Below are positions 11,058 to 54,543 of a stretch of 64,000 nucleotides of DNA, piece by piece. The notes under the pieces are model-generated. The model worked only from the letters and a program-made list of their open reading frames with translations. It made no database searches and had not been told where the DNA came from. The stretch lies in contig QHNJ01000163.1 of the NCBI GenBank assembly GCA_003218395.1, positions 1,676 through 65,675 on the forward strand, read 5' to 3'. This stretch comes from Verrucomicrobiota bacterium (GTDB lineage Bacteria > Verrucomicrobiota > Verrucomicrobiia > Chthoniobacterales > UBA10450). Positions within the stretch are counted from its first letter, which is position 1. The number at the start of each line of letters is the position of its first letter. The position numbers and the translations under genes are program-made.

Positions 11058-11101
11058 TTTATCTTCTTACTCTTGCTCCTGCTCATGCTCTTGATCACTC
11101 G

Positions 11102-11183
11102 CTGTAGCGGGCGCTGTCCTCAGCGCATCCGATCGAGTGATCGCGCGCGCTGGATTCTCCGCTGAGGACAGCGGACACTACAG
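11102..11183. repeat. inverted pair of GTAG+hairpin REP units (variant)
   Basis: CTGTAGCGGGCGCTGTCCTCAGCG (11102-11125) and its near reverse complement CGCTGAGGACAGCGGACACTACAG (11160-11183). Each carries a GCGCTG/CAGCGC stem. Confidence 0.7.
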
Positions 11184-11202
11184 CCTCAAGCGCACCGTTC
11201 CG

Positions 11203-13083: not shown

Positions 13084-13912
13084 GCGGCCAATACAAGGTA
13101 GCCTGTTTATGCGAGGCTCTTCTGGTCTCGCGCAGCGGTTACTACGACTGGAAAGAGCGGCGCCGCCACCCCGGACCGCGCCAACTGGAAAACATCCGCT
13201 TGCGCGAGCGGATCCGAGAGGAATTTGCTCGCAGTCGCCAGACTTACGGCAGCCCACGATTGTCTCATGCGCTGGGTTGTCCGGGACGACGCAATTGCAT
13301 TGCCCGCCTCATGCGTCTGGAGCGGATCTTCGCCCGGCAGCGCTCCAAATATCGAGTGGCTACCACCGACAGTCGCCGTGCTGGACCCATTGCGCCTAAC
13401 CGATTGCACAACCTCGCCGTTCGACGCTCCAATCAAGTCTGGGTCAGCGATGCCACCGCAGTCCTCACTGCTCAGGGCTGGTTGTATCTGGTCGCGGTCC
13501 TGGATCTCTCTTCACCAGGCGCGTAGTTGGATGGGCTATGAGCCAAATCCTCGACGCCGCACTGGTGATCAGCGCATTGCGCATGGCGCTTGGTCAACGT
13601 CCTCCCACGCGAAATCTTATCCTCCACTCCGATCGCGGGGCTCAGTTCGCCAGCGCCGCTTACCGACAAGTCCTGGCCCAACATGGCTTGGTCGCTTCCA
13701 TGAGTCGCAAAGGCAACTGCTACGATAACGCCTTCATCGAGTCCTTCTTTAGCACTCTCAAATACGAACTGGTCTACCATCATCGCTTCGCTACCCGCGC
13801 CCAGGCCCGCACCGCCATCTTCGATTACATCGAAACCTTCTACAACCGCACCAGACTCCACTCCAGTCTTGACTACCAAAGCCCTATCAATTTTGAATCC
13901 AAATTGAACTAA
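13080..13912 (+). pseudogene. IS3-family transposase OrfB (rve/DDE integrase), frameshifted at about 13506-13512
   Basis: VSRSGYYDW...WVSDATAV..GWLYLVAVLDL, then a premature stop. The sequence continues in another frame as (F)TRRVVGWAMS...HSDRGAQFAS...SMSRKGNCYDNAFIESFF. An extra TC in the ctctctt run explains the shift. Confidence 0.8.
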
Positions 13913-16106: not shown

Positions 16107-16499
16107 ATGGAGAGTAAAGATCCGAACGCAAACGCAAAAGGTCCAACAGCTCTGATCGATGTAATCGCACAAGACCCGAAGACGGACGAAGTCGTTCTCG
16201 TGATGAATCAGCCTGACGAGTGGAACGGCTCGGACGAACAATTGCTCGCGTTACAGGAGCGGTTCAACGCTTACGTTTCATTTTTGCTCGACGGCGAAAT
16301 GGCATCCGATCATCCGGGACTTGCTGGCAAACCGGCGCGCATTGAGGTGCGTTGCGCGCACATGCCTGATACTGGCGCGCTAGAGTTGCTCGCTCTCATT
16401 CATGATCAGCTGGTGTTCCAGGAGATTAAACTGGAAGTGGTCGTACGAAATGACGAAATCCGAATGCCGAATGACGAAGGAATGACGAAATCCGAATAA
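16107..16499 (+). CDS. hypothetical protein whose C-terminal tail is encoded by a hairpin repeat
   Basis: 130-aa ORF with an acidic N-terminus. The last ~17 codons (RNDEIRMPNDEGMTKSE) lie in the AATGACGAA reiterations. Confidence 0.45.
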   Translation: MESKDPNANAKGPTALIDVIAQDPKTDEVVLVMNQPDEWNGSDEQLLALQERFNAYVSFLLDGEMASDHPGLAGKPARIEVRCAHMPDTGALELLALIHDQLVFQEIKLEVVVRNDEIRMPNDEGMTKSE

Positions 16500-16590
16500 C
16501 GGAGCCGCATCGGTTGTTGTTCGTCATTTCTGCATTCGAGCTTCATTCGTCATTAGTCATTCGTGCTTCGTCATTTTCTGATCTAGCGTG
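16441..16590. repeat. MITE/REP-like hairpin element built of AATGACGAA / TTCGTCATT units
   Basis: Three forward AATGACGAA units (16448-16490) face several TTCGTCATT units (16518-16578). Confidence 0.65.
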
Positions 16591-30431: not shown

Positions 30432-32606
30432 ATGCCCGCGACGCTCGAACAAAAACCTGCCGCGAAGAATCCGAATTCGCCTAATCGCAAGTTCCCGCTC
30501 GAGCGGACGCGGAACATTGGAATCGCCGCGCACATTGATGCCGGCAAAACGACACTGACGGAGCGCGTTCTGTTTTACACCGGTATGATCCACAAGATCG
30601 GCGAAGTGCACGAAGGCACCACCGTGACCGATTGGATGGAACAGGAGCGCGAGCGTGGGATTACGATTACTTCGGCGGCGACGACCTGTGCGTGGACGCA
30701 GCGTCAAGAGCCAGGCGTTTACAAGATTTTCGAGGGTATCAAGCAGCGCATTAATATCATTGACACGCCCGGCCACGTGGATTTCACCGCGGAAGTTGAG
30801 CGTTCGCTTCGAGTGCTCGATGGAGCGATTGCGGTGTTCGATGCCGTTGCCGGCGTGCAGCCACAATCTGAGACCGTTTGGAGGCAGGCGACTAAATACA
30901 ATGTCCCGTGCATCGCGTTCATCAACAAAATGGACCGTGTCGGTGCTGACTTTAAGATGTCGATCGACAGCATGCGCCAAAAACTCGGCGCAAACGCCTG
31001 GCCGGTTTTGCTTCCACTCGGCAAAGAGGATCAGTTCAAAGGCCAGATCGACATCATTAATAAGAAGGCGGTCATTTATTCGGACAGCGATCAGCTAGGG
31101 TCGACGTATGAACTTGCAGATGTTCCAAAAGAGTATGTCGATCTTGTCGATAAAGCTTATGCCGACCTCGTCGAACAAATTTCAAATCTCGACGACGAAG
31201 TCGCGGAGGCTGTTCTCGAAGAAAAGCCGGTCCCACCCGAGTTGCTGAAAGCGGGTATTCGGCGCCAAACCATCGCGAACAAGTTTGTGCCGGTCGTTGC
31301 CGGTTCTGCACTCAAGAATAAAGGCGTGCAGTACCTGGTCGATGCGGTAGTCGATTATCTGCCGAGCCCGCTCGATATTCCGCCAGCGAAAGGTCAGGAC
31401 CCGGACACGGGCGAAAAGATCGAAGCGCCGACCGATGACAACGGCAATTTTTGTTCGCTCGCCTTCAAGCTTTGGAGCGATCCGTTTGTCGGCAAGCTTG
31501 TCTTCTTTCGTGTTTATTCCGGCACACTTTCGAAAGGCGACACGGTTTACAATCCGCGCACGAACAAGCGCGAACGCATTTCGCGTTTGATCCAAATCCA
31601 GGCCGACAAACGCGAGGATATCGAAACCTGTTACTCAGGCGATATCGCGGCCATCGTCGGCATTAAGAATATCACCACGGGCGACACTCTGTGCGACGAA
31701 GACTATCCGATCCTGCTCGAGCCGCCGACGTTTCCTGATCCCGTCATATCAATGGCCATCGAGCCAAAGACAAAATTGGATCAGGAAAAGATGGGTGTCG
31801 CGCTGCAACGTCTTGCCGAAGAAGATCCAACGTTCCGCGTTTACACGCACGAAGACACCGGCCAAACGATCATCGCCGGCATGGGCGAATTGCATCTGGA
31901 GATCATTCGCGATCGTATGTTCCGCGAGTTCAAAGTCGACGCGAACGCGGGCAAACCGCAGATCGCGTATCGCGAAACGATTACCAGCTACGCGCACGGC
32001 GTCGGTAAGTTGATCAAACAATCCGGTGGTCGCGGTCAATACGGCCACGTCGAAGTAGATGTGCGTCCCGGCTCTCGAAGCAGCGGCTTGGTCGTCGAAA
32101 ATAAAATCGTCGGCGGCATTATTCCGCGGGAGTACATTCCCGCAGTCAAGAAAGGCATCGAAGAAGCGGTGCTCAACGGCGTGCTGGGCGGTTACCCCGT
32201 TGTCGATGTTGAGGTCGACATTGTTTATGGAAGTTTTCACGAAGTCGATTCCAGCGAACTGGCGTTTAAGCTGGCAGCGATTTTCGCGATGAAAGACGGC
32301 TTCAAACAGGGTAAGCCGATCCTGCTCGAGCCGATCATGAAGGTGGAAAACATCACACCAGAGGAATTTCAAGGCGACATTTGCGGAGATCTGAGCCGAC
32401 GGCGCGGCAGCATCAATAGCATAGAAACCAGAGGCCATCTGGCGATTATTCACGCCGAAGTTCCGCTTGCTGAACTCTTCGGCTACGCAACCGCGATTCG
32501 TTCGCTCTCCAAAGGCCGCTCGAGTTATTCGATGGAACCGTCGCATTTTCAGCAAGTGCCGCAGAATCTGGTGGCGGCGATTCTTGATCAAAAGGAGACG
32601 AAATGA
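30432..32606 (+). CDS. fusA: translation elongation factor G
   Basis: G1 [10 protein letters not shown]3 DTPGHVDF, G4 NKMD, plus domains II-V (e.g. [17 protein letters not shown]). Confidence 0.95.
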
Positions 32607-35460: not shown

Positions 35461-35501
35461 TGTTCTGTAGTTGCGGCCCTGTTTGGCACGGGGAATCCGT
35501 C

Positions 35502-35546
35502 CTGTAGGGATGCATCGCGCACGCGCCGCACAGAGGCGCGCTACAA
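35502..35546 (-). repeat. GTAG+hairpin REP unit (variant) in the rplB-rpsS spacer
   Basis: The minus strand reads TGTAGC-GCGCC-TCTGTGC-GGCGC-GTGCGCGATGCATCCCTACA. The 103-nt spacer inside the S10 operon is otherwise unexplained. Confidence 0.55.
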
Positions 35547-35563
35547 GTTGTCATTTGCAATTT

Positions 35564-35842
35564 ATGGCTAGATCGTTGAAGAAAGGACCCTTCGTCGAAT
35601 CGCATCTTTTGGAGAAGATCGACAAGATGAATAGTGCGGGCGCAAAGAAACCGATCAAAACCTGGTCGCGGCGTTCGATGGTGACACCGGATTTTGTCGG
35701 CCACACGTTTTTGGTGCACAACGGAAAGACCTTTAACTCCGTTTTCATCACTGAGAACATGGTCGGTCATAAGCTCGGTGAATTTTCACCGACGCGCGTG
35801 TTCAAGAAACATGGTTCGCACACGGCGAAGGTGGCGAAGTAA
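35564..35842 (+). CDS. rpsS: 30S ribosomal protein S19
   Basis: [15 protein letters not shown]........[20 protein letters not shown].....[15 protein letters not shown]. Confidence 0.95.
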
Positions 35843-35891
35843 TGTGAATTTTCGATTTTCGACTTTCGATTTTCGATTGCCCAAATGGGCA

Positions 35892-36683
35892 ATGAGTCGG
35901 GGATCGATGATCATGTTTGTTGGCCTGTTGCCGGTCGGAAGGCTGGCGGCAGAGGGAGATAGTTCTTTGTCAGAATCCAAAGTTGAAAACGCGGAACACG
36001 CAGTGACGGCGGGGGCGTTGCTCGTACAAAACGAAGAGCTGCGCAGGCAGTTGTCCGTTGAGCAGGAATCGCTCAAGGCCTTGACGAGCAGCTTGGCGGA
36101 ATCCAACGCGGAAGCGGAATTGTTTCGCCGCAAGTATTCCGATTTGGAATTGCGGATGGAAGCGCTGGGTCTGGCTTCAGCGAGTAAAGATCGCGCGAAG
36201 CTGGAGCAACGCTTGCTGGCGGCTGTGAGCGATCTTCAACTCGCACAGAAGGAACGCGATGAGTATCGCGATCAGATGTTGCGGCTGAACGAGGCGATGT
36301 TGCGTTATCTGAAAACGTCGCAGGGTGGTGACGCGCAAGCGCGCATGGAGGTAGAAACGCAATTGCGCAGCATGAATAATCTCGTGACAAGATCGGCCAG
36401 CGCGCCGGATTCGGCGGAACCGAGTTTGCTGGATGGGAGCGTCATTAGTGTGAAGGACGAGTGGTCGTTCGTGGTCGGCAACCTTGGCGAAAAACAGGGT
36501 GTAAAAATCGGCATGCCGATGCGCGTAATGCGCAACGATCGGAAGATCGCGACGCTGCGAGTGGTCGACGTGCGGCAGAAAATTTGCGGCGCCGTGATTC
36601 AAGAAATGGATTCGGAGAAGGAAAAGATAAGAATAGGGGATCGCCTCCAGGTGGATGCGCAGTCGAATGTGAGCTTGAAATAA
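35892..36683 (+). CDS. non-ribosomal coiled-coil protein with N-terminal hydrophobic segment and C-terminal beta-rich domain, inserted between rpsS and rplV
   Basis: 263-aa ORF. MIMFVGLLPVGRLAA may be an anchor or signal. About 130 aa have heptad-like coiled-coil character (LRRQLSVEQESLKALTSSLAESNAEAELFRRKYSDLELRMEAL...). The C-terminus is GSVISVKDEWSFVVGNLGEKQGVKIGMPMRVMRNDRKIATLRVVDV. Confidence 0.6.
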   Translation: MSRGSMIMFVGLLPVGRLAAEGDSSLSESKVENAEHAVTAGALLVQNEELRRQLSVEQESLKALTSSLAESNAEAELFRRKYSDLELRMEALGLASASKDRAKLEQRLLAAVSDLQLAQKERDEYRDQMLRLNEAMLRYLKTSQGGDAQARMEVETQLRSMNNLVTRSASAPDSAEPSLLDGSVISVKDEWSFVVGNLGEKQGVKIGMPMRVMRNDRKIATLRVVDVRQKICGAVIQEMDSEKEKIRIGDRLQVDAQSNVSLK

Positions 36684-36794
36684 TAGAAGTTAAGAAGGTT
36701 AAAAGAGTAATAAGGGTTGCATCGCTAAGACGGGAGGACGTTGCCGTTGTAACGTTGTAACCTTTTGACCCTTTTGACGTCATGACGAAGTAAC

Positions 36795-37286
36795 ATGGAA
36801 GTGAGATCAATATATAAATATGCGCGGATTTCGCCGTTCAAGGTGCGCGAAGTCACGCGTGAGATCCAGGGTCTGCCGGTTTCGGCCGCACTCGATCTTC
36901 TCGCGTTCACTCCAAAAAAAGCCGCATTTCTGATCGGCAAAACGCTCAAGAGCGCAATCGCCAATGCGGAGAACAACGCGAACTTGAAACCGGATGGATT
37001 GGTCGTGAAGGAGGCGATTGTCGGCGAAGGCCCGACGCTCAAGCGGATCATGGCGCGCGCGCGGGGAAGCACCAGCCGAATTTTGAAGCGCACGAGCCAC
37101 ATCCGCATTGTGCTATCGGACGAAATTCCAATTGAGACGCGCGAGACGCAAAAAGCGAAACGAGAACAGGGAAAGAAAGAATTAAAGAAGCAAGCAACAG
37201 CCGGTGAGACGGCCGAAGCACCGACAACCTCAGCGGCGGAAAAGAGGCGCAAGGTAAAGAAGGCCGGAAAGAAAGCGAAAAGGTAA
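36795..37286 (+). CDS. rplV: 50S ribosomal protein L22 (Lys/Glu-rich C-terminal extension of about 50 aa)
   Basis: A..KY.RISP.K.R.V...I.G..V..AL..L.F.PKKAA....K.L.SA.ANAE.N......L.V.....EGP.LKR...RA.G....I.KRTSHI. Confidence 0.93.
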   Translation: MEVRSIYKYARISPFKVREVTREIQGLPVSAALDLLAFTPKKAAFLIGKTLKSAIANAENNANLKPDGLVVKEAIVGEGPTLKRIMARARGSTSRILKRTSHIRIVLSDEIPIETRETQKAKREQGKKELKKQATAGETAEAPTTSAAEKRRKVKKAGKKAKR

Positions 37287-39633: not shown

Positions 39634-40206
39634 ATGGAAAACGAATTTTATCGACATTACAAAGAACGCGTGATGCCGGCGCTGAAAGAGCTCCATGGCT
39701 ACAAAAACGTCCACCAGATTCCGAAGGTCGACAAAGTCGTGATTAACACTTCAGTTGGCTCGCAATCGGACGTGAAGCAGGCGCTGGAGGAGGCAAAGGC
39801 GGAACTTGCCTTGATCACGGGACAGCGCCCGGTGGAAACTTTGGCGAAGAGAAGCATTTCCAACTTCAAGTTGCGAAAGTCGCAGGCAATTGGCGCGAAG
39901 GTGACCTTGCGTGGCGAACGCATGTACGAGTTTCTCGAGCGCTTCATCAAAGCAGCGCTCCCCCGCATTCGTGATTTTCGCGGCGTGTCGCCGCGCTGTT
40001 TTGATAAGCATGGCAACTACACGCTGGGAATTTCGGATCAGTCGATCTTTCCCGAAGTCGAGCTCGATAAAATCAAGCGCAACATTGGATTTGATGTTAC
40101 AATTGTCACCACGGCACGGACGGACGAGGAAGCCAAGTCGCTCTTAAGCGAAATGGGAATGCCGTTCAGCGACCGGGCGAGGAAGCCCGCCGCGCAACCC
40201 GCCTGA
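39634..40206 (+). CDS. rplE: 50S ribosomal protein L5
   Basis: Y.......L......N.HQ.PK..KVVIN..VG..........A...L..ITGQ.P......KSI..FKLR......G.KVTLRG.RMYEFL.R.I..ALPR.RDFRG. Confidence 0.95.
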
Positions 40207-40211
40207 TTTTC

Positions 40212-40610
40212 ATGAGTACTGTTACTGATCCTATTGCTGATTTTCTGGCGCGCGTCCGCAACGGCACGCGTGCGCAAAAGCCGGAGGTTTTCGTTCCGTA
40301 CTCGAAGATCAAGGCGGAGATTTCCCGCATCTTAAAGGACGAAGGCTACATCTCCGATTATTCGATCGACACGAGCGCTGCGCATCCGCGCATTAAGATC
40401 ATAAACAAAATAGTGAGCCGCTCGAGCGCGATTGCAGGGCTGCGACGCGTGAGCCGGCCGGGATTGCGCCGGTACGTCGGTGCGCACGAAATCCCTCGAG
40501 TGCTCGGTGGAATGGGTTTGGCGATTCTTTCCACCTCGCGCGGCATTTTATCGGGGCGCGAAGCAAGGAAGCACAAGGTCGGCGGCGAACTACTTGCCTA
40601 CGTTTGGTAA
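40212..40610 (+). CDS. rpsH: 30S ribosomal protein S8
   Basis: DPIAD.L.R.RN.......V..P.SK.K..I..IL..EGYI.....; ...PGLR.Y...........GG.G..I.STS.G....EAR...VGGE.L.YVW. Confidence 0.95.
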   Translation: MSTVTDPIADFLARVRNGTRAQKPEVFVPYSKIKAEISRILKDEGYISDYSIDTSAAHPRIKIINKIVSRSSAIAGLRRVSRPGLRRYVGAHEIPRVLGGMGLAILSTSRGILSGREARKHKVGGELLAYVW

Positions 40611-45994: not shown

Positions 45995-46052
45995 AATCCA
46001 TTTAACGGGTTAACATTTAACTTTGTAACCTTGTAACTTTTTAACGAATATC

Positions 46053-46460: not shown

Positions 46461-47129
46461 ATGGCTGAATCAAAGGACCCGACCAACGCAAATCCGGAAG
46501 AATCGGAAACGAAGAAGCCGAAATCGATGGCAGCTCGGACCGATTCGCCGGAACGCGAGACTGTGGGAACAACCGGTGAAGAGGGCGCACATGGCGACGT
46601 TTCGACAAGCGCAGGTTCTAAATTGGCAGCTCCAGAGACGGAGCCGGTAGTTAAGCCAGCCACGAAGCTTGCCAAGAGAAAAAAAGAAGAGCCAGCGCCG
46701 GTTCAAGCGGCACGGGAAAGCCTTTCACTGTCGTCGGACGAGATTGACAAGCCAAAGGTCGTCAAGGCTAAAGGCAGCAAGAATATTCATTCGGGCATTG
46801 CCCACGTTCTTTCGACGTTTAACAACACAATCGTGACGATCACCGACATGAAAGGCAGCGTGATTGGTTGGTCGAGCGCCGGCAAAGTCGGCTTTAAAGG
46901 CTCGCGCAAAAGCACCGCCTACGCAGCGCAGATGGTCGCGCAAGATGCTTCGCGACAAGCGATGGGCCACGGGCTGAAAGAAGTGGAAGTTTTGGTAAAA
47001 GGGCCCGGGGCAGGACGCGAATCGGCGGTACGAGCTTTGCAGGCAATCGGGCTCGATCTCACGGTTATTCGCGATGTTACTCCCATGCCACATAACGGCT
47101 GTCGCCCGCCAAAACAACGCCGCGTCTAA
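46461..47129 (+). CDS. rpsK: 30S ribosomal protein S11 with a low-complexity N-terminal extension of about 95 aa
   Basis: Core: [43 protein letters not shown]....R.A...G...V.V.VKGPG.GRESA.RAL...GL....[17 protein letters not shown]. No in-frame ATG/GTG/TTG lies closer to the core. Confidence 0.88.
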
Positions 47130-47168: not shown

Positions 47169-47780
47169 ATGGGTAGATACACAGGACCAAAAACGAGAGT
47201 GAGCCGGCGCTATGGGGTGCCGATTTTCGGTTTCTCCAAGGCATTGGAGCGGAAAAATTATCCTCCAGGCATGCATGGCCCGAGAGGTTCCCGGCGCAAA
47301 CAATCGGAGTACGCGATTGCGCTCGGCGAAAAACAAAAGCTGCGTTATCAATATGGGCTTCTCGAGCGGCAATTTCGGAGGATTTTCGAGAAGGCGCTGC
47401 AGAAGCGCGGTGTGACAGGTGAAACACTTCTTCAACTATTGGAGACGCGTATCGATAATGTCGTTTACCGACTTGGCTTGGCCAACACGCGCAGCGCGGC
47501 TCGCCAGCTCGTGTCGCATGGCCACGTGCTCGTGAACGGGCGCAGCGTGAATGTCGCTTCCTACAATGTGAAGGCAGGCGACGAAATCACGATCAAAGAT
47601 AAACCTAAATCGCGCCAGCTGGTGTTGCGTAACCTTGATCTGACGCAAATCGTTCCCGTGCCCGACTGGCTCACAGTCGATCGCGACGCGCTCAGCGGCA
47701 AAGTCGCGCACATTCCGTCGCGAGAAGAGATGCAGCCGATCGTAAACGAACAGCTCATCGTCGAGCTGTATTCGCGGTAA
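47169..47780 (+). CDS. rpsD: 30S ribosomal protein S4
   Basis: MGRYTGPK...SRR.G; ...SEYA..L.EKQKLR..YG..ERQFR; S4 RNA-binding domain LE.R.DNVVYR.GLA.TR..ARQLVSHGH..VNG..VN..SY.V..GD.I. Confidence 0.95.
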   Translation: MGRYTGPKTRVSRRYGVPIFGFSKALERKNYPPGMHGPRGSRRKQSEYAIALGEKQKLRYQYGLLERQFRRIFEKALQKRGVTGETLLQLLETRIDNVVYRLGLANTRSAARQLVSHGHVLVNGRSVNVASYNVKAGDEITIKDKPKSRQLVLRNLDLTQIVPVPDWLTVDRDALSGKVAHIPSREEMQPIVNEQLIVELYSR

Positions 47781-47781
47781 T

Positions 47782-47842
47782 CTGTAGCGGCGCTCTATGA
47801 GCGCCCCGAATTATGATCGGCGGTCATAGAGCGCCGCTACAG
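47782..47842. repeat. inverted doublet of GTAG+hairpin REPs directly after rpsD (possible terminator)
   Basis: CTGTAGCGGCGCTCTATGAGCGCC (47782-47805) and GGCGGTCATAGAGCGCCGCTACAG (47819-47842). Each unit contains a GGCGCTC-TAT-GAGCGCC type stem-loop. Confidence 0.8.
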
Positions 47843-48069
47843 TTGGCCTCAAGATACTCTAAGGCTTTGTCGTAACTTTTACGCTCGAGGTAATGCTTCA
47901 GTCGCGGATCAATCGGCTGCGGAAGCGCTGCTTGCAAGCTGTCGATCTTCTCAGAAACCGCGCGCAATCGGGCGATGTGTTTCACTTCATCGCGACGGCT
48001 GTCTTCGTTATGAATAATCGCGAGGCGTTCTCGCAGAGCTTCTCTTAAATCGACAATTGCGCTTTCCAT
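47824..48069 (-). CDS. hypothetical small helical protein (C-terminal codons lie in the REP)
   Basis: 81-aa ORF, charged and helical in character, with no recognised family. The last residues (NCSGAL) are encoded by the REP at 47819-47842. Confidence 0.35.
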   Translation of the reverse strand: MESAIVDLREALRERLAIIHNEDSRRDEVKHIARLRAVSEKIDSLQAALPQPIDPRLKHYLERKSYDKALEYLEANCSGAL

Positions 48070-48080
48070 TTATTTAAGAA

Positions 48081-48164
48081 CCGCGGATTACACAGATTAA
48101 CACAGATAGAGAAATCGGCGCCTACAGATCGCTAATTATCCGTAATCATCCGGGAAATCCGTGG
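48081..48164. repeat. CACAGAT/CACGGAT-type hairpin repeat, second locus
   Basis: CCGCGGATTACACAGATTAACACAGATA faces TTATCCGTAATCATCCGGGAAATCCGTGG. Confidence 0.55.
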
Positions 48165-48206
48165 TTAAGAATGATTCCGAGCAAATCGGTCTGCGTGACA
48201 ACGGAT

Positions 48207-48590
48207 TCAGCGCGGGCCTGTTTCGGAGAGTAGCTGGCGTCTCGCTTCGAGCCAATCCGATTCAGCGTCGCCTGGCAGCGCGAACCTGCGGCGTCGCTCG
48301 GAAATGAAGTAGGCGCGCAACCGAATTTGCTCGTCCGTAGGCTCCGCTGTTCCGCCGGCCTCTGGCGGCATTGGAACCGTTGCTCTCTGCGCCGTTGCAA
48401 TTCTCTTATCATGCGCTCCTGGTTTCTTCGAGCCTGTTGGTGCGCGACGGGGACGAGGCGCTTTACCGCGCTTTGCTTCAGTAGGCAATCCGCTGGCTTC
48501 TAGTGGCCCTTGATTTTTGCTTTGGACAATTTTGCTCTTTTTGGGCACAGATTGATTGGTGTTAATGATTTCAATTCGTTTAACGCGCAT
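48207..48590 (-). CDS. DUF2934-domain protein
   Basis: The C-terminal EQIRLRAYFISERRR......GDAESDWLEARRQL matches the DUF2934 signature as I recall it. The N-terminus is basic and low in complexity. Confidence 0.55.
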   Translation of the reverse strand: MRVKRIEIINTNQSVPKKSKIVQSKNQGPLEASGLPTEAKRGKAPRPRRAPTGSKKPGAHDKRIATAQRATVPMPPEAGGTAEPTDEQIRLRAYFISERRRRFALPGDAESDWLEARRQLLSETGPR

Positions 48591-48653
48591 CGTCCGGTTG
48601 GCAAGTGCTTTCTCGCCGCCGGTTAGACGAGTGCTAAATTATAAATCTCCTGT

Positions 48654-52900: not shown

Positions 52901-54543
52901 GTGCAATCCCGATGGATCGTTGCGCCGCCGGAGGAACTATACGGCGGACCAATTTCGTGGAATGAAATCTGTGGGTACGCATGTATCGCGCGGCTACTCA
53001 TGCGCAAAGGCTTCGCGAACGCGGAGGAAGTAGAAACGTTTCTGCGACCGCGTCTCAAATCATTAAGCGATCCGTCTTTGCTTCCAAACATGCAAGCGGC
53101 TGCGCAGCGAGTTCTTGCTGCGTTGGATCGGCATGAGCGGGTCGTTTTGTTCGGAGATTACGATGTCGATGGCGTGACCTCGATTGCACTCTTGACGGAG
53201 ATGTTGCGCGCTTACGGCGGCGCGCCGGAATTATTTTTGCCGCTGCGGATGGAGGAAGGTTACGGATTGAGTCCAGAAAGCGTCGAGCGGTGCCTGAAGC
53301 AGCATCATCCTCAACTCTTGATTGCAGTAGACTGCGGCACATCGTCCGTGAGTGAGATTGTCGATCTTACGCGACGCGGCGTGGACGTGATCGTGCTCGA
53401 TCACCATGAACCAAAATCGGCGTTGCCTGATTGCGTGGCGATCGTGAATCCGAAAATCGATCCGGAATCGCCGTTTCATTATCTGTGCAGTGTCGGAATC
53501 GTTTTTAAACTTTGTCACGCCCTTTTGAAAACGAGACCACTGTTTGATTTCGATCTTAAATCGAAACTCGATCTAGTGGCACTGGGCACAGTCGCGGACA
53601 TCGTCCCGTTGCGAGGGGAAAATCGGATTTTTGTCCGGCGTGGCGCGATTGAAATTACAAGACGGACGAGATCATTGGATTCCGACTCGGGCCGCGACTG
53701 AACGCAGCAGGACGATTGAGCACTGCTGAAAAGTCGTTGCAGCTTCTGCTTACCAAAGACGAAAACGAAGCCGGTGCGCTTGCTGACCTTCTCGACAAGC
53801 AAAATCGCGACCGGCAGGAAATCGAAAGGCAAGTGTTCATTGCAGCGGAAGAGCAGATCTGCCGTGATTTTGATCCGTTACGGGACGCGGCAATCGTGGT
53901 TGGAGCGCGCGAGTGGCATCCAGGCGTGGTGGGGATTGTGGCCTCGCGAATTTCGCGCAAATATCATCGGCCGACGATCGTGATCGGGTTCGAGGCAAAT
54001 GGCACTGGAAAAGGCAGTGGACGCAGCATCGAAGGGCTTAATCTGGTCGAAGCATTAGATCGCTGCGCTGAATCACTGGAAAAATTCGGCGGGCACGAAA
54101 TGGCGGCTGGCCTCACAATTCGCGAAGAGAAGATCGACGTGTTCGCGGCGGAATTTCGCCGGGTGACGCGCGAGCTGCTCTCGGATGATTACTTGCAACC
54201 GTGCCTCCGCATCGATCACGAGCTCGCGTTTTCGGAACTCACGGGCGATTTTCTCCAGTGGCACGAAATGCTCCAGCCATTCGGTAACGGGAATCCGGCG
54301 CCGCTTTTTTTTGCGCGCGAAGTCGAGCCGGTCATGCCGCCGCAGGAGGTAAAGGAGAAGCATCTCATTTTGCGCCTGCGCCAGGGGAATTACCATCGGC
54401 GCGCAGTTTACTTCGATTCGGCAAATCTCTCACTGCCGCCGGCGCCCTGGGACATTGCCTTTCGCATCCGCGCGGATGAATACGAAGGCGAAACTACGCT
54501 GGGCATGCGGATCGAGGCCGTGCGAAAAGCGGAGCAAATTTGA
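52901..54543 (+). pseudogene. recJ: single-stranded-DNA-specific exonuclease RecJ, interrupted (short deletion plus frameshift at about 53645-53660)
   Basis: ORF1 carries the DHH motifs (VVLFGDYDVDGVTS, ...IAVDCGTSS, ...VIVLDHHE, ...LDLVALGTVADIVPL.GENR). ORF2 resumes in frame +1 with (I)IGFRLGPRLNAAGRL...NRDRQEIE...GWHPGVVGIVASR. About 15-20 aa expected between them are absent. Confidence 0.8.

Follow-up and report, generated by a model that had tools for sequence, protein, structure and literature searches.

In a 64,000-nt stretch of a Verrucomicrobiota genome (contig QHNJ01000163.1 of assembly GCA_003218395.1; this whole stretch is called the window below), the genes of the ribosomal proteins S19 (rpsS) and L22 (rplV) are separated by a non-ribosomal gene, here named X, which is a genuine and constrained protein-coding gene in a position that is fixed, typical of the lineage and old. 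The reading that we favor, with a probability of about 0.6, is that X has been a cistron of the S10 operon in Verrucomicrobiota since ancient times and is inherited vertically, and that its product would act as an exported, growth-coupled scaffold in the periplasm. To our knowledge, the rpsS-rplV adjacency is near-universal, from bacteria to archaea and plastids, and because it is so widely conserved, its stable, lineage-wide break by the gene of a secreted-looking protein was unexpected. We found no description of X or of the S19-X-L22 arrangement in the searchable literature. For Gammaproteobacteria and Bacilli, gene insertions account for most rearrangements of this operon cluster, and the genes on either side often became separated afterwards; of four insertions analyzed in detail three lie between operons and the fourth inside rpoBC (PMC8046335). 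Since the insertions detailed there mostly lie between operons, a stable interruption within an operon, between S19 and L22 and across a lineage, is unusual.

A constrained gene at a fixed position

To compare X with close relatives, we scanned the genomes of GTDB species, found relatives in 240 stretches, and used the best 80 of these (70–97% identity), which come from Candidatus Udaeobacter, Chthoniobacterales or 'Spartobacteria' metagenome-assembled genomes (MAGs), two of them bearing other phylum labels. Against these 80 orthologues, the median ratio of nonsynonymous to synonymous polymorphism (pN/pS) was 0.19 for X, next to 0.16 for L22 and 0.08 for S19. Homologues were counted by a word-indexed protein search, which matched 3900 proteins at E ≤ 1e-3, and by an exhaustive HMMER scan of cluster representatives (50% identity), which gave 809, 382 and 103 X-family clusters at E ≤ 1e-3, 1e-10 and 1e-30, respectively. 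The best 120 matches (87–100% identity) are from MAGs of soil Verrucomicrobia and are annotated 'hypothetical'; among the matches listed, most are 235–300 amino acids (aa) long and cover the greater part of the query, at identities that go down to about 30%, and the rest are shorter fragments. Nearly all of the 382 clusters at E ≤ 1e-10 have lengths of 250–290 aa. Pfam and NCBIfam returned nothing above threshold for the X protein of the window. Apart from the odd location of X, nothing favors a spurious open reading frame in a long non-coding spacer, and this explanation, to which we assign practically no probability, is already refuted by the pN/pS value, the thousands of homologues and the confidently predicted fold (see below). 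The initial annotation, which was made from the sequence alone and took X for a non-ribosomal gene, was right in this respect.

Public annotations of the X family are unreliable (the database proteins P0123 and P0076 are examples). Some gene calls fuse the N-terminus of S19 to X or begin within the repeat upstream of X (279-aa forms), and the automatic names 'ZapB' and 'chromosome segregation ATPase' mirror coiled-coil composition only; names such as 'ZapB' or 'SMC-like' should be dropped for X.

X occupies 35892..36683 on the forward strand, the strand of the operon, and encodes 263 aa when read from ATG 35892, as first annotated. The start codon is ambiguous, the alternative being ATG 35907 (258 aa), which is the choice of most gene callers in relatives. 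A start at GTG 35844 (279 aa) is unlikely, as it would translate the species-variable upstream repeat. The upstream neighbor on the same strand is rpsS (35564..35842; ATG at 35564 and stop TAA at 35840–35842, from the open reading frame and its translation) and the downstream neighbor is rplV (36795..37286, forward strand). The gap between them, put at about 950 nt in the initial annotation, is exactly 952 nt (35843–36794).

The gene order L2-S19-X-L22-S3 is present in 80 of the 80 close-relative loci, across which S19 is 90–100% identical. Ten distant loci were reached by profile searches seeded with remote family members, and include the 7.8-Mb genome GCA_054456655.1 of Verrucomicrobiota bacterium sgz303538, two MAGs, one from Chthoniobacteraceae and one labelled Verrucomicrobiales (L2 63–66% and X 31–40% identical), and several metagenome contigs, one of them at 38.5% G+C. 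In these loci L2 is 63–76% and X 31–51% identical to the window, and X again lies between the Ribosomal_S19 and Ribosomal_L22 genes in ten of ten, with the Pfam domain Ribosomal_S19 called on the gene equivalent to rpsS. Thus the S19-X-L22 arrangement was found in all family loci examined (90/90), and because X holds the same place across such deep divergence, it is a lineage-typical gene and not a recent insert. A borderline match in another genomic context (P0411, E 4e-4) covers one third of the query and was set aside as coiled-coil similarity outside the family. In Chlamydia trachomatis, rpsS and rplV are presumably adjacent.

Operon junctions and repeat-array hairpins

The junctions of X were analyzed in the relatives (n = 79 for X-L22 and 74 for S19-X), together with other junctions of the operon (n = 74 for L23-L2, 76 for L2-S19 and 77 for L22-S3). 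The X stop codon abuts or overlaps the L22 ATG (0 or −1 nt; …AAATAAATGGAA or …TAATGG) in 34/79 relatives, and the X-L22 gap is 8 nt or less in 37/79. On the other side, 9 of the 74 relatives have 66 nt between the S19 stop and the conserved SSLSES motif, which leaves room for a signal peptide alone, and in the same nine a TTG (in one case GTG) start codon follows 0–2 nt after the S19 stop; the tight junctions take forms such as TAG directly followed by TTG upstream of X and TAAATG downstream. Intergenic gaps in the distant loci are 6–98 nt. In the window, a consensus scan detected neither promoter-like nor terminator-like sites in the two spacers around X; one match of the promoter type and one of the terminator type, the latter on the minus strand, lie inside the X coding sequence. 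X therefore has what is expected of an S10-operon cistron, namely the same strand, short or overlapping junctions and a conserved position. The abutting or overlapping junctions and the spacers free of promoter- and terminator-like sites indicate that X is almost certainly co-transcribed with rpsS, rplV and the rest of the S10 operon, which the initial annotation had considered probable, and the compact layout, with its TTG or GTG start right after the S19 stop and its X stop at the L22 ATG, implies that X would be translationally coupled on both sides. This compact layout is probably the ancestral one.

In the window both spacers contain repeats. The S19-X spacer contains a tandem heptamer array, (ATTTTCG)x4.4, at 35848..35878 on the forward strand (Tandem Repeats Finder); a repeat had been noted here before, with a period of 8 instead of 7 and as (TTTCGAYT)x4. 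The array is the 5' arm of a predicted RNA hairpin (35854..35912, forward strand; minimum free energy (MFE) −27.3 kcal/mol, z −3.6), in which it pairs with the first codons of X; both candidate start codons (35892 and 35907) and a Shine-Dalgarno-like GGGGA run are base-paired in the hairpin. The hairpin is kept in 14 close relatives, where three of its 22 pairs, in the inner stem, show compensatory changes. At the same junction, relatives have arrays of other heptamers or no spacer.

The X-L22 spacer is predicted to form an imperfect hairpin of 98 nt (36689..36786, forward strand; MFE −35.3 kcal/mol, z −3.6) built of 7–9-nt repeat units (GTTAA.. / ..TTGTAAC, CTTTTGAC). The reiterations reported here by the initial annotation are present, and are better described as the arrays (CGTTGTAA)x2.1 at 36745–36761 and (CCTTTTGAC)x2 at 36761–36778, which make up the 3' arm of this hairpin. 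Homologous or similar elements occur at the X-L22 junction of 42/79 relatives and are absent in 37, and some are built of other units (GTTAAAAG/CTTTTAAC, GTTGAAG/CTTCAAC or GAGAATCG/CGATTCTC). A neighbor-joining tree of ribosomal proteins implies at least 16 switches between presence and absence of the downstream spacer, with the compact form at the root. For the downstream hairpin, covariation at the level of the alignment is uninformative, since the alignment is scrambled by slippage of the repeats. At least three hairpin sequence types (units GTTAAAAG, GTTGAAG and GAGAATCG) stand at the identical site between X stop and L22 ATG in different species, and both arms change together, either by repeated insertion at one site or by concerted evolution of the arms.

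Spacers of at least 60 nt are also found at L23-L2 (19/74), L2-S19 (48/76) and L22-S3 (12/77). The S10 operons of the Udaeobacter clade have intercistronic spacers of 60–290 nt (the L2-S19 spacer of the window, 35461–35563, is 103 nt long), and their patchy distribution among close relatives implies that they are often gained and lost. Elsewhere in the window, an array facing its inverted array forms a hairpin at 16448–16576 ((AATGACG)n facing (TCATTCG)n; MFE −50.8 kcal/mol, z −3.8), and there are further arrays of period 7 at 13572, 16062, 18044 and 47132 and of period 8 at 46018. Taken together, the 7–8-nt arrays resemble one class of repeat-array hairpins that occupies intergenic sites throughout the lineage. 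Rfam gave no match, either on the window or on the X locus. Two near-perfect palindromic hairpins (47782–47842, z −9.1; 11101–11184, z −5.3) share the ends CTGTAGCGG...CCGCTACAG, and one of them lies directly after rpsD (S4); CTGTAGSGG-like words occur at about twice the expected frequency in the window, and these are REP-like (repetitive extragenic palindromic) or terminator-like elements.

The initial annotation had taken the repeats as a sign that X was acquired by insertion. A recent mobile or illegitimate event that put X into the S19-L22 junction, with the simple repeats as its scars, would fit an adjacency that is otherwise near-universal, as well as the repeats that do flank X in the window and the finding that, in well-studied clades, insertions in this operon cluster mostly fall between operons (PMC8046335). 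However, X is at the same site in every one of the 90 loci, down to 31% identity; many relatives carry X without repeats and with zero-length junctions; the repeat units differ between species, with their many gains and losses starting from a compact root; and similar repeats stand at other junctions of the S10 operon. The two flanks, moreover, are unrelated to each other and hence are not a target-site duplication. A recent event is refuted and keeps next to no probability, while an old insertion, at the point where the lineage began, is true by definition. The repeats are secondary and were added after X was in place, because they are absent in many X-bearing relatives, underwent 16 or more gains or losses and are present at other junctions; they are not scars of an acquisition, and the survey of synteny places X routinely at this site as a lineage-typical gene. 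As for what the hairpins in the window genome do, it is plausible that, having been inserted on either side of X, they modulate its translation: the upstream hairpin, pairing the start region, would probably damp the translation of X as an attenuator, and the downstream hairpin may uncouple the initiation of L22 from X.

Predicted export and fold

The N-terminus of the window protein reads MSRGSMIMFVGLLPVGRLAA followed by EGDSSLSES, and residues 1–20 (35892..35951, forward strand) are a predicted general secretory (Sec) signal peptide with cleavage before EGD, as judged from heuristic features and family alignments. Signal-peptide features were scored heuristically, not with SignalP, on 109 representatives using an 11-residue hydrophobic window. 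A hydrophobic stretch was found in 98/109, preceded by R or K in 91 and followed by a small-x-small motif in 98, and by this heuristic X has the charged n-region, h-region and AxA-type c-region of a signal peptidase I substrate. The hydrophobic stretch is only about 10–15 residues long and, with the small-x-small site behind it, looks more like a cleavable signal peptide than like the uncleaved transmembrane anchor of MreC. Beyond residue 60, a 19-residue window of strong hydrophobicity was seen in only 5/109 representatives. The N-terminal sequence is unconserved, and its signal-peptide character is kept down to relatives of 30% identity. From these features we infer that X bears a cleavable Sec signal peptide and would be exported to the periplasm. 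Many Udaeobacter orthologues have an LxGC lipobox-like motif within the signal peptide (for example, VLGCVTLARGLAA followed by EGN), and lipidation may differ between close relatives; the Cys of this motif is absent from window X and most distant members. A lipoprotein reading of X was rejected, as window X has no LxGC and a lipobox-like motif occurs in just 9/109 representatives.

The full-length protein was modeled by AlphaFold2 with a 54-sequence alignment (predicted local distance difference test (pLDDT) 80). The model contains helices at residues 27–91, 101–142 and 148–169, mostly at pLDDT 85–95, and a beta domain at 182–254, and agrees with the three parts seen in the initial annotation (hydrophobic N-terminus, coiled coil and beta-rich C-terminus), which had also quoted the C-terminal sequence (…IRIGDRLQV) correctly. 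The helical, coiled-coil region of about 140 aa (aa 27–169; 35970..36398, forward strand) has a conserved EALG hinge with an invariant G93. The C-terminal domain (aa 182–257; 36435..36662, forward strand) is a single six-stranded beta-barrel of the FlgT_C, ATPase-crown or MreC type, and when modeled alone reached pLDDT 87.6 with a predicted template modeling score of 0.76. In Foldseek searches against the PDB, the barrel matched FlgT at the top (8z5n, E 1.3e-3, and 3w1e, E 2.6e-3; query template modeling score 0.62), followed by the N-terminal crown barrels of F1, V1 and type III secretion ATPases (0.57–0.67), and the full-length model matched MreC (2j5u at E 7e-4, also 7eft; range 7e-4 to 4e-3).

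Pfam FlgT_C (PF16538) matched 23/54 full-length members (best E 3.1e-5) and 16/23 C-terminal domains (best E 6.7e-6), with bit scores of 14 for the window barrel and 16.9 for one further tabulated member against a gathering score of 27, and the precomputed Pfam column of the database lists PF16538 for a few other members of the family. Pfam MreC (PF04085) matched 9/54 full-length members and 7/23 C-terminal domains (best E 2.9e-4) and did not match the window protein; one tabulated match, at about 18 bits where the cut-off is 28, covered model positions 9–42 of 147. The NCBIfam mreC models matched at most four of the 54 members each (TIGR00219, four, E 2e-3; NF010513, four; NF010532, two, best E 2e-4). 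A PDB sequence search with full-length and barrel profiles returned coiled-coil noise (vimentin, tetherin), with TsaP as the best match for the barrel at E 0.23. The models place the barrel of X in the FlgT/MreC/ATPase-crown fold class, which typically mediates oligomerization or partner binding, and X falls outside both the MreC and the FlgT family as defined. Of the likeness to MreC proposed by the initial annotation, a weak similarity at the level of the fold and sub-threshold matches in a minority of members remain, but FlgT is the better match.

Three other identities of X were weighed. X would be the MreC of this lineage if a divergent, single-barrel orthologue had moved from mreBCD into the S10 operon, and the common logic of an N-terminal hydrophobic segment, a coiled coil and a beta-barrel, together with the Foldseek and profile matches just described, speaks for it. 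We nevertheless consider this relocation improbable, since AlphaFold2 gives one barrel and not two, the distant half of the family has no MreC match, the matches that exist span about 30 residues below threshold, and FlgT and ATPase crown barrels match at least equally well; furthermore, the N-terminus resembles a cleavable signal peptide rather than a membrane anchor, X is never beside mreB or mreD in the 90 loci, and the window holds no mre genes. A FlgT- or TsaP-like ring component of a trans-envelope machine, either akin to the flagellar H-ring or linked to the secretin of a type IV pilus, is suggested by FlgT as the top structural match, by FlgT_C as the commonest Pfam match and by TsaP as the best PDB sequence match of the barrel. 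Such a role is still less probable, because the C-terminal barrel alone is shared (FlgT_N, FlgT_M and LysM are missing), all matches are sub-threshold, flagellar or pilus genes adjoin X in none of the loci, and the strictly kept housekeeping position suits a core function better than an accessory machine.

We give the same small chance to a cytoplasmic X, that is, a ZapB-like, SMC-like or ribosome-associated coiled coil whose hydrophobic N-terminus is not an export signal. The automatic names, an operon context that suggests a link to translation, and the occurrence of barrels of the same fold in cytoplasmic ATPases are in line with it; on the other side, the names reflect coiled-coil composition, all Pfam and NCBIfam coiled-coil matches are sub-threshold, and the positive n-region, the hydrophobic region of 10–15 residues and the AxA-like site persist in relatives of 30% identity.

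The reading as an exported scaffold would combine these features as follows. After cleavage of the signal peptide, the hinged coiled coil (about 140 residues) and the FlgT/MreC-type barrel would make X an oligomerizing protein-protein scaffold in the cell envelope, and its embedding in the operon would tie its synthesis to that of ribosomes, that is, to growth rate. Several points weigh against this reading. The taxonomic breadth of X rests on MAG labels and ribosomal-protein divergence, with cultured references (Akkermansia, Opitutus and Verrucomicrobium) outside the sample. The n-region of window X is weak if translation begins at 35907. The FlgT_C and MreC matches that have coordinates span about 30 residues (the region of the G..GV..GMP motif) and fall below the Pfam cut-offs, and the barrel fold is generic, is also found in cytoplasmic ATPases and specifies no function. 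The codon adaptation index of X (0.73) does not discriminate between ribosomal proteins (0.71±0.04) and other genes (0.69±0.03). Translation at the level of ribosomal proteins would make X extremely abundant, and the TTG starts and the hairpin suggest otherwise; in that case, a stoichiometric level of L22 would be hard to account for in the compact layout.

A bolder version, which we regard as unlikely, though less so than the three identities above, is that X is a phylum-defining, abundant and essential 'periskeletal' protein in the periplasm of Verrucomicrobiota, whose production is hard-wired to ribosomes by translational coupling in the S10 operon, and that the lineage-specific repeat-array hairpins are attenuators able to evolve, by which the amount of X is tuned relative to ribosomal proteins. 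If this were true, the architecture of the envelope would be linked genetically and directly to growth rate, and the link might contribute to the unusual cell plan of the Planctomycetes-Verrucomicrobia-Chlamydiae (PVC) group.

Candidatus Udaeobacter is among the most abundant soil bacteria, and X points to a core, uncharacterized envelope factor in Verrucomicrobiota including this genus. X is a simple synteny marker for the lineage and a candidate for essentiality and localization work in cultured Verrucomicrobia, and its locus is a natural system for asking how a non-ribosomal cistron and intercistronic hairpins fit into a stoichiometrically tuned operon.

The surrounding window and comparison with known systems

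The forward strand of the window carries the str-S10-spc ribosomal cluster in the order S12, S7, EF-G, S10, L3, L4, L23, L2, S19, X, L22, S3, L16, L29, S17, L14, L24, L5, S8, L6, L18, S5 and onward, and secY-adk-map are present after L15. fusA (EF-G) and rpsJ (S10) overlap by 4 nt (32603–32606) with no tuf between them, which indicates that the str and S10 operons are fused. rpsN (S14) is not at its usual L5-S8 site, where the gap is just 5 nt (window 40206–40212), and S14 is likewise missing between L5 and S8 in those distant Verrucomicrobiota loci whose sequence extends to this site. Several ribosomal proteins have low-complexity extensions: S11 (46461–47129) has about 110 extra N-terminal residues, its Pfam domain lying at 112–221 of 222 aa; L22 (36795–37286) ends in a C-terminal tail of about 50 aa that is rich in Lys and Ala, and the length of L22 varies from 134 to 243 aa among relatives; and L3 (32952–33665) has a Lys/Ala/Pro/Glu-rich tail. 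The alpha operon is apparently truncated (47169–48600), with S13, S11 and S4 followed by a hairpin and then an opposite-strand open reading frame, and rpoA and rplQ are not directly downstream of S4 in the window. RecJ-like domains are spread over two adjoining open reading frames (DHH in 52901–53701, DHHA1 and RecJ_OB in 53716–54543), and this split could be genuine or could stem from a frameshift or an error of sequencing.

In enterobacterial operons, REP and bacterial interspersed mosaic element (BIME) hairpins lie between cistrons. The repeats flanking X are like them in being stable intercistronic hairpins that vary between relatives and occur at several junctions, and unlike them in having tandem 7–9-nt units in both arms (array and inverted array), in their occurrence in Verrucomicrobia and in their lack of an Rfam match. 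For the protein itself, an analogy in general layout is CrvA, which has a signal peptide, a coiled coil and a small beta domain and forms a polymeric periplasmic scaffold. The comparison is by analogy only; the beta domain of CrvA is of another kind, its genomic context is ordinary, and a relationship in sequence to X is not expected. CrvA-type 'periskeletal' coiled-coil proteins of Vibrio cholerae are mentioned in the literature (PMC8938487). The PVC signature protein CT421.2, a lineage-restricted hypothetical protein of 53–80 aa, has been proposed as a clade marker (PMC3444138). An identity of X with CT421.2 was rejected, since X has 250–290 aa and a different architecture, and the two are unrelated.

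MreC (PDB 2j5u and 7eft; PF04085) shares with X the hydrophobic N-terminus, the coiled coil, the beta-barrel and, presumably, the logic of a periplasmic scaffold. It differs in its uncleaved membrane anchor, its two barrels and its place in mreBCD, whereas in X the signal peptide looks cleavable, the coiled coil is longer and hinged, the barrel is single and the gene is in the S10 operon. FlgT, from the flagellar H-ring of Vibrio (3w1e and 8z5n), is periplasmic, as X is predicted to be, and has a C-terminal six-stranded barrel that the model of X resembles, but it is composed of three domains (N, M and C), has no long coiled coil and belongs to a flagellar context. In its architecture, then, X appears analogous to periplasmic scaffolds such as MreC, FlgT or CrvA, and in its genetic logic it appears analogous to secY in the spc operon. 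Like the passenger genes secY, adk, map, infA and rpoA in spc and alpha, X is a non-ribosomal gene, apparently related to the envelope or to secretion, that is stably embedded among ribosomal genes and, in all likelihood, co-expressed with them; unlike these passengers, which are near-universal and belong to the spc and alpha operons, X is apparently restricted to one phylum and interrupts S19-L22 of an otherwise purely ribosomal S10 operon.

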